Assembly (NCBI RefSeq): GCF_033153115.1
Contig: NW_026889751.1
Coordinates: 17,918,001 to 17,982,000, forward strand
From: Saccostrea echinata
Lineage: Eukaryota
DNA length: 64,000 bases
Reading direction: 5' to 3'
The position numbers were made by a program, and so were the translations under genes. This document shows positions 41,790-42,183 of the stretch, one piece after another. Each line of letters starts with the position of its first letter. The first letter of the stretch is position 1. The notes beneath the pieces were generated by a model that was given only the letters and a program-made list of their open reading frames with translations, was not told where the DNA came from and searched no databases.

Positions 41790-42183
41790 TTTCCGCATCA
41801 GTACCGTCACTTTCTAAGATTAGTAAGCCAGGTATGACACGGAAAAAATATACTTGGTTTAACCAATAACTACGACATGTAACTATATACGTGTAAAGCA
41901 ATCCGCACCAATACCGTCACTGAGAGAGGTCAGCCAAGTATCTTAACGGAAAGCATAAGGCTATTTACATAGAGCAATCCGCACCAATACCGTCACTGAG
42001 AATGGTCAGCCGGGTATCTAACGGAAAGCATAAGATTATCTACGTACAGCAATCCGCACCAATACCGTCACTGAGAAAGGTCAGCCGGGTATCTAACGGA
42101 AAGCATGGACTATTTACATTAGGCGATCCGCCATGATATAACGTCACTGAAAAATATCAGCCAGGTATATCCAACGGAAAGCA
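41790..42183. repeat. Tandem array of ~75-bp structured repeats (4 copies plus 1 divergent) inside the outer LTR element
   Basis: Units start at 41898, 41974, 42049 and 42123, with a divergent unit at ~41790. Core GCAATCCGCACCAATACCGTCACTGA-N6-TCAGCCGGGTATCTAACGGAAAGC. Confidence 0.9.

Follow-up and report, generated by a model that had tools for sequence, protein, structure and literature searches.

An array of five tandem hairpins, each followed by a motif of the Pumilio type, is found inside a minus-strand LTR element of the oyster Saccostrea echinata, within the 64,000-nucleotide stretch of DNA analysed here (the window). This array is a real repeat and probably an RNA-level element under selection. 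The reading tentatively preferred, held at somewhat under an even chance, is that it represents a selected, multivalent 3' cis-acting RNA element in which a site for a structure-specific protein would be joined to a Pumilio site. All the evidence comes from five paralogous units of a single copy of the element, three of which are nearly identical.

An earlier note on this DNA, made from the sequence alone, had placed the array ~0.85-1.2 kb upstream of the polypurine tract (PPT) of the outer element. Five repeat units are indeed present there, at 0.82-1.2 kb upstream of the PPT on the sense strand of the element. In the order in which the RNA would carry them, they are the following:

42123..42182, minus strand: hairpin unit 5, first in the RNA, with the middle stem lengthened by 2 bp on both arms and one C-U mismatch
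42049..42104, minus strand: hairpin unit 4
41974..42029, minus strand: hairpin unit 3
41898..41954, minus strand: hairpin unit 2, with a C-G to U-G change that is tolerated on the sense strand only
41790..41845, minus strand: hairpin unit 1, last in the RNA and most divergent, with extended basal and apical stems and a G-C to U-A double change

The unit size is 75 nt, with 17-18 nt between hairpins. A covariance model built from the five units recovers all of them in the 64-kb window at E <= 3e-15 and, among the 16 matches listed, no other is better than E 0.03, so that no sixth unit was found in the window. A partial look-alike of the 3' arm of the unit, missed by this model, is located at 41600-41612; in the RNA it follows unit 1 at a distance of 190 nt.

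The nested stems that had been proposed for the plus strand do exist, but it is the minus strand, the sense strand of the element, that folds better, both per unit and over the whole array. The minimum free energy of the units goes from -22.4 to -23.4 kcal/mol on the sense strand versus -11.7 to -15.8 kcal/mol on the plus strand, and the corresponding z scores from -3.5 to -5.4 versus -1.7 to -4.0, with the sense strand performing better in 5/5 units; for the complete array, z is -4.5 versus -1.8. Similarly, 76 of the 80 core pair cells hold standard pairs on the sense strand versus 63 on the plus strand. Among these sense-strand cells, 14 are G-U and one is A-C, and the G-U pairs, all of which come from just four columns, stand where the plus strand has A-C mismatches.

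From the outside inward, the sense fold begins with an outer stem of 5 bp that ends in U-G, followed by a lower loop that varies, a middle stem of 5-8 bp, a 2x3 internal loop, a 5-bp apical stem that starts with G-U, and a pyrimidine-rich apical loop. The internal loop, previously described as GTCA opposite CCR, is thus revised on the better-folding strand to YG opposite GAC. The arms measure 21-23 nt, all five units share an invariant AGUGACG early in the 3' arm, and the apical loop is variable. On these folding models, the hairpins would form in the RNA of the element.

In all five units, the hairpin is followed by the sequence YGUANAUA, which is placed 8 nt past the outer stem (10 nt in unit 2). 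This tail motif was spotted by inspection, out of the large number of protein-binding motifs that could have been recognised, and had been absent from the earlier description of the array. Its five copies, again in RNA order, are:

42111..42118, minus strand: perfect Pumilio element UGUAAAUA after unit 5
42037..42044, minus strand: Pumilio-like motif following unit 4, carrying a C in position 1 and a G in position 5
41962..41969, minus strand: perfect Pumilio element UGUAAAUA after unit 3
41884..41891, minus strand: Pumilio-like motif following unit 2, displaced by 2 nt and carrying a C in position 1
41776..41783, minus strand: perfect Pumilio element UGUAAAUA after unit 1

Three of the five tail motifs are therefore perfect copies of the Pumilio response element UGUA[A/C/U]AUA, all on the sense strand, and every one of the five matches the consensus at 7 or 8 of its 8 positions. 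At position 5, the motifs have A, G, or U, while the U at position 1 fails in two of the five, which carry a C instead. For position 5, the PUM2 study reports that A, C, and U are not told apart, and for position 1 a ~100-fold specificity (10.1101/403006), so the two motifs with C at position 1 should be weak Pumilio sites. These C-type motifs alternate with the perfect ones and may derive from a single event in a duplicated pair.

When the tails are anchored on the hairpin alone, four of the five are in register without gaps, and six of their seven invariant columns belong to GUA.AUA (clustering p 0.008, with unit 2 omitted for its 2-nt shift); adding unit 2 ungapped makes the invariant columns drop to four. 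The element UGUAHAUA is frequent in this DNA, with 49 occurrences in 128 kb of strand, and the 5335 internal bases that belong to the outer element itself contain three, against 2.0 expected, and these three are all sense-strand sites within the array. The tail motifs are predicted to be partly paired, with a mean unpaired probability of 0.25-0.77. On these sequence grounds, Pumilio may bind the array, a possibility in which argument and doubt are nearly balanced, with doubt slightly the heavier.

The tails could also be read at the level of DNA, as a cluster of transcription-factor sites, or the hairpins as structures adopted by single-stranded DNA during reverse transcription. GTAAATA is a forkhead-type motif and occurs in three of the five tails; in addition, unit 1 folds as DNA better than its shuffles (z -3.9). 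However, the other two tails break the forkhead core at precisely the position that Pumilio ignores, and double-stranded sites leave the pairing between arms unexplained. Furthermore, units 3 and 5, which together with unit 1 make up the three of five units that were folded as DNA, do not outperform their shuffles on one strand or the other (z -0.8 to -1.7), indicating that the signal is RNA-like. An explanation at the DNA level is regarded as very improbable.

The earlier note had also attributed compensatory changes to the stems. This claim finds weak support in a register set by hand, where one of 16 core pairs shows a clear double change (the G-C to U-A of unit 1), and in the arm lengthening of unit 5. 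It finds none in a MAFFT alignment of the five units, in which double changes affect 0/19 and 0/18 pairs, and the covariation score observed is equalled or exceeded in 500 out of 500 shuffles.

Changes are unevenly distributed over the unit. Variable columns amount to 8/32 in the stems, 1/5 in the core loop, 0/6 in GUA.AUA, and 22/25 in loops and spacers, a count that is partly circular because the units had been split at conserved anchors. When unit 3 was given random changes to match the divergence of unit 1 or unit 5, an equally good fold was kept in only 0.7% and 1.1% of 1500 trials, respectively, and in 8% of them at the divergence of unit 2; this simulation ignores indels, which biases it in favour of unit 1. 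Among units 2-4, the hairpins are 90-98% alike whereas the tails are 53-71% alike, and the three pairwise comparisons give identities of 47/48 versus 12/17 (p 0.004), 45/49 versus 9/17 (p 0.001), and 44/49 versus 12/19 (p 0.03). Conversion between units could yield this excess of hairpin over tail identity. In units 1 and 5, the changed columns are 5/32 and 3/32 in the stems versus 6/11 and 8/11 in the apical and lower loops, and conversion does not easily explain why the loops outpace the stems within the same hairpin. Selection on the RNA structure of the array is held to be fairly likely.

The same data bear on the possibility that the array is a functionless minisatellite, generated by slippage or template switching of one hairpin unit and with its hairpins kept alike by gene conversion. 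Covariation was not found and only one copy is available, both of which suit this explanation, as does the abundance of short arrays borne by transposons in oysters, HINE elements included (PMC7492417). About half of the plant Retand families have tandem arrays as well, and their function is stated to be unknown (PMC11963269). Against it count the stems of units 1 and 5, hard for conversion to account for, the G-U pairs, which favour one strand, and the failure to find a flanking microsatellite of the HINE kind. The central repeats of Cg_HINE, a Helentron, have a subTIR with a nearby inverted copy and a microsatellite on one flank, and a subTIR with a palindrome on the other (PMC7492417); at the array, no microsatellite was found nearby, and a close subTIR-IR pair is not obvious among the 25 of 40 inverted pairs listed. 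In the supplement of the Crassostrea gigas satellitome, where long runs are shortened in the file, four short motifs of the unit gave a single, unrelated match and the unit core gave none (PMC8268682). A minisatellite of this type is thus thought unlikely, although it keeps some weight.

A further alternative, considered unlikely to a similar degree, accepts selection on the hairpins, for packaging, dimerisation, or CTE-like export, and takes the tail to be unrelated to Pumilio, being retained either for pairing between tails or for a different protein, for example a 3'-end factor that reads UGUA. All the structural evidence, that is, the strand bias, the G-U pairs, the conservation of the stems, and the contrast with the DNA fold, fits this alternative, and two of the five motifs violate position 1 of the Pumilio consensus. 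Moreover, neighbouring tails are predicted to form an 8-bp pairing (p 0.78), and the MusD and SERV-K/MER11 export elements are also located near the 3' end (PMC5767303, PMC11379458). This pairing, however, is predicted for some tail pairs only, and the agreement of all five motifs with Pumilio at 7-8 of 8 positions, with variation at the free position, speaks for the protein.

Some retroviruses carry microRNA clusters transcribed by Pol III, and the array could likewise be a cluster of small-RNA precursors, each hairpin releasing a ~22-nt RNA from its 3' arm with the invariant 7-mer at its start. The 21-23-nt arms, the variable apical loop, and the early position of AGUGACG within all five 3' arms agree with this idea. 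Nevertheless, a Microprocessor substrate has a stem of ~35 bp with single-stranded flanks, for which stems of ~18-24 bp separated by 17-18 nt are too short, and a canonical pri-miRNA cluster was discarded for this reason. Pol III boxes are also missing, with neither an A box nor a B box, and no U4 terminator directly follows units 2-5. The top Rfam match reaches 17 bits versus a gathering score of 105, and both arms and the loop bases are equally conserved, all of which makes a precursor cluster improbable.

The proposal that the units are copies of an unclassified self-cleaving ribozyme has not been borne out, and this is the least probable of the explanations considered. Invariant unpaired bases in a fixed loop would be expected of a ribozyme, and retroelements are known ribozyme hosts. 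Yet no match to Rfam reaches the gathering score for any family, ribozymes included, the hairpin is unbranched, and its freely varying apical loop implies that there is no conserved pseudoknot partner. In addition, cleavage 0.8 kb before the PPT would presumably sever the template for reverse transcription. The hammerhead core consists of CUGANGA with a GAAA partner in a three-way junction; CUGANGA is absent from both strands of 41740-42230, and a hammerhead or retrozyme was rejected.

Two other known RNA motifs were considered and rejected. Kink-turns contain tandem G.A and A.G pairs beside a bulge, and the 3' arm does carry RUGA in 5/5 units; the opposite strand, however, has YG without GA, and no box C is present, which dismisses a kink-turn, a SECIS, or a box C-D identity. 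The Smaug recognition element is a CNGG in a loop; CNGG is found on the sense strand in four of the five units, none of them in a hairpin loop closed by at least four pairs.

The array sits inside an outer element that belongs to the non-autonomous LTR retrotransposons, having two LTRs, a site resembling a primer-binding site (PBS), a PPT, a target duplication, and no recognisable pol. Its main features, together with two insertions, are:

40711..40957, minus strand: 3' LTR of the outer element, with the 4-bp duplication GTAT outside
40958..40975, minus strand: PPT of the outer element, just before the 3' LTR
42586..42932, plus strand: inserted tRNA-derived SINE, separate from the array, with a 13-nt target duplication
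43455..45630, plus strand: inserted young gag-only LTR element in opposite orientation, with LTRs 99.5% alike and a 361-aa zinc-knuckle ORF
46135..47301, minus strand: single ORF of the outer element, 1.17 kb, with frameshifts near 47050 and 46230
48805..48824, minus strand: primer-binding-site-like stretch with a (T)TGG start, directly after the 5' LTR
48825..49059, minus strand: 5' LTR of the outer element, with the 4-bp duplication GTAT outside

Without its inserts, the outer element is ~5.8 kb long. Its LTRs are 88% alike, a figure that may overstate its age since their differences are unevenly spread (within the first 130 columns of the alignment, two substitutions plus one indel of 15 nt and one of 1 nt, versus ~17 differences in the rest), which suggests a recombinant LTR. 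The missing pol is what defines the element as non-autonomous: no Pfam family for RT, RNase H, or integrase was found in the four longest frames scanned, and no other sense-strand frame exceeds 103 aa besides the one ORF. Within the 1.5-kb 5' leader, positions 48014-48097 form a perfect 84-bp palindrome, a candidate dimerisation or packaging hairpin, or else a small insert. Purine runs resembling a PPT are seen on the minus strand near 43290-43310 and 45960-45985, the first being followed by TAGTGTAG, which is similar to the LTR start. The gag-only insert has 575-bp LTRs, its ORF (zinc knuckle, coiled coil) starts within the 5' LTR, and no array units were detected in it by a covariance-model search.

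The description of the host as a non-coding retroelement does not hold, since the 1.17-kb ORF, in spite of its two frameshifts, has many homologs in oysters. It comprises a start rich in Pro, Tyr, and Gly, an acidic middle, and a conserved 50-aa end, and is found in many copies in Saccostrea cucullata, as well as in S. echinata and Crassostrea virginica. The family, which includes 27 proteins found in one search in addition to those of S. echinata, is undescribed and oyster-specific. Examples of its members are XP_062573225.1, XP_062598435.1, XP_061164996.1, and two proteins of C. virginica. Its members have a low-complexity start, rich in P/Y/G or in Q, and an ENKCW motif in the conserved end, whose codons double as AATAAA in this window. 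Database names for these proteins are misleading, and a search for longer proteins with the ORF gave as its sole match a chitin-synthase gene model that had engulfed a copy.

As for the nature of the encoded protein, it is possibly derived from Gag. The lead comes from one relative, P0028, a 91-residue part of which has neighbours of the Gag clan in the Atlas (score 0.91-0.93). Neither Pfam nor fold searches confirm it: no Pfam Gag domain matches the ORF of the window or 11 relatives, the Gag-like part gives a low-confidence model (pLDDT 58) with fold matches of a generic helical kind only (best Z 7.0), and a PDB sequence search returned nothing under E 0.7. A search of the Atlas with the conserved end of the ORF produced no usable match.

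Beyond the units themselves, an inverted pair has been identified that could enclose the array in a larger domain of the RNA. Its arms are:

42415..42440, minus strand: 5' arm in a predicted long-range pairing of 12+8 bp, a lead
41111..41131, minus strand: 3' arm of the same predicted helix, a lead

According to the prediction (p about 0.8), this pair would close off 1.3 kb of sense RNA around the array as a domain; a pair of this kind is also given by 5 out of 2000 shuffles, and no target duplication was found at its ends. Unit 2 takes on a different fold (p 0.65) when 1.6 kb are folded together. The 1.3-kb domain is treated as a lead, because such long-range predictions are weak and unit 2 is rearranged in the same fold.

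Several other repeats were observed in the window. Nested palindromic repeats of 83-84 nt, MITE- or foldback-like, occupy both ends of a 1.3-kb stretch at 6300-7680; about eight copies of a 22-nt unit with TGTGATTGG (CCAAT on the other strand) are present at 39392-39615; and a 42-nt (2x21) tandem repeat with ACCACA motifs is located at 58446-58697.

Searches for other copies of the array or its relatives covered viral, prokaryote, and metagenome contigs. A scan of viral contigs for the core pattern of the unit gave no matches. The same scan in metagenomes gave 11 single matches, none of them similar to the element by BLAST and ten of them in stop-free frames of at least 132 aa, and these were treated as chance. 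One metagenome match, L003, scores E 0.0016 with the unit model after having been pre-selected by the pattern. A second unit pattern yielded eight viral matches, and elsewhere in those loci the unit model found a sole match at E 0.3. No locus was confirmed when viral and prokaryote contigs were scanned with protein guidance. Among sequencing runs, none of RNA was listed with the region, which says nothing about expression, and the only one with part of it is an oyster metagenome. In this run, contigs were recovered over 42012-42166, with one difference in 155 positions that falls in a spacer, and over 42396-42587, with 0/192 differences; the second extends 2 nt into the SINE and so probably represents the same locus rather than an independent copy.

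LTR elements that are non-autonomous and depend on Gypsy are known from bivalves. The Helenus TRIMs share with the outer element LTRs, a PBS, a PPT, a 4-bp target duplication, and the lack of pol, but are short, under about 1 kb, and have a tRNA-like sequence in their LTRs (PMC10886601). The size of ~5.8 kb, the ORF, and the tRNA-free LTRs of the present element rule out a Helenus identity, and the unit core was not found in the supplement of the Helenus paper (PMC10886601). For non-autonomous animal elements that have 4-bp duplications, this paper names Gypsy elements as the helpers.

The plant Retand (Tat) Gypsy elements also carry tandem repeats, specific to each family, in the stretch that separates the coding region from the 3' LTR (PMC11963269). 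The available text of that report contains no mention of hairpins or secondary structure (PMC11963269), and the oyster array differs from Retand repeats in its strand-specific fold and its motif for an RNA-binding protein.

Cis-acting structured RNAs on full-length LTR transcripts are also represented by the CTE of MPMV, the MTE of MusD, SERV-K/MER11, and the PTE of MLV, and the SERV-K/MER11 element is located just before the PPT (PMC5767303, PMC11379458). The array, predicted as a structured sense RNA 0.8-1.2 kb before the PPT, is a candidate for this type of element. Unlike it, the retroviral transport elements are single, range from 162 to about 1400 nt, involve kissing loops or pseudoknots in MusD, and have been tested for export; the available text of their descriptions contains no tandem unit of a hairpin plus a Pumilio site (PMC5767303, PMC11379458). 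Rfam has no match of the catalogued CTE/MTE type near the gathering score.

The design of the unit itself can be compared with host RNAs. The lncRNA NORAD likewise consists of tandem units with a Pumilio element and predicted stem-loops, in which changes of the G-U type support the structure (PMC4947167). As a lncRNA of the host, NORAD has 12 units, each ~300 nt long, with 17 or more sites that have been verified (PMC4947167), whereas the array belongs to a mobile element and comprises five 75-nt units with one larger hairpin each and three candidate sites that are perfect by sequence. The E3 element of the yeast ASH1 mRNA also places a stem-loop for a structure reader beside PUF sites in a 3' region, and serves transport and translational repression: She2 binds the stem-loop and Puf6 binds the nearby sites, thus coupling transport to repression (PMC4117797). 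In contrast to the five-unit array, E3 is one element, belongs to a host mRNA, and has UUGU as its Puf6 sites (PMC4117797).

The suggestion of a multivalent protein-binding motif is accordingly retained from the earlier note as the favoured one, on account of the sense-strand G-U pairs and of stems that are kept more than loops and spacers, although covariation lends it no support. According to the mechanism proposed for this multivalent element, the full-length sense RNA would display five hairpins, each adjoining a PUF site. The fixed 2x3 loop and the flanking G-U pair would bind a putative structure-reading protein, while Pumilio would bind the three perfect sites, and selection would maintain both the stems and the tail motif. 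The joint complex would then move the RNA, by export or germ-line localisation, while restraining its translation, and the untranslated RNA would stay available to the packaging machinery of a helper element. This role in transport plus repression, drawn by analogy with ASH1 E3/Puf6 and the retroviral 3' transport elements and nothing else, is given a lower likelihood than the binding of Pumilio.

In its most complete form, the hypothesis would describe an oyster LTR family with a NORAD-like hairpin-plus-Pumilio array in a 1.3-kb 3' domain, hijacking the transport and repression by germ-line Pumilio/Nanos to bring its RNA, still untranslated, to helper particles. Combined in this way, it is a doubtful proposition. 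If it were true, it would constitute a multivalent PUF scaffold that is carried by a transposon and organised around an internal-loop motif not yet catalogued. Literature searches, with most subscription papers and Repbase outside their range, found no report of a Pumilio array in LTR elements, nor of this element, and none of tandem stem-loop export elements in LTR retrotransposons.

With its strand-specific fold, fixed internal loop, and motif for a host protein in each unit, the array provides a direct handle on the function of the tandem repeats that are common toward the 3' end of LTR elements. As the ORF family is present in both Saccostrea and Crassostrea, public genomes should contain copies suitable for a covariation test. 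If Pumilio does bind the array, a mobile element would be using a NORAD-like multivalent design for the germ-line control of its own RNA.
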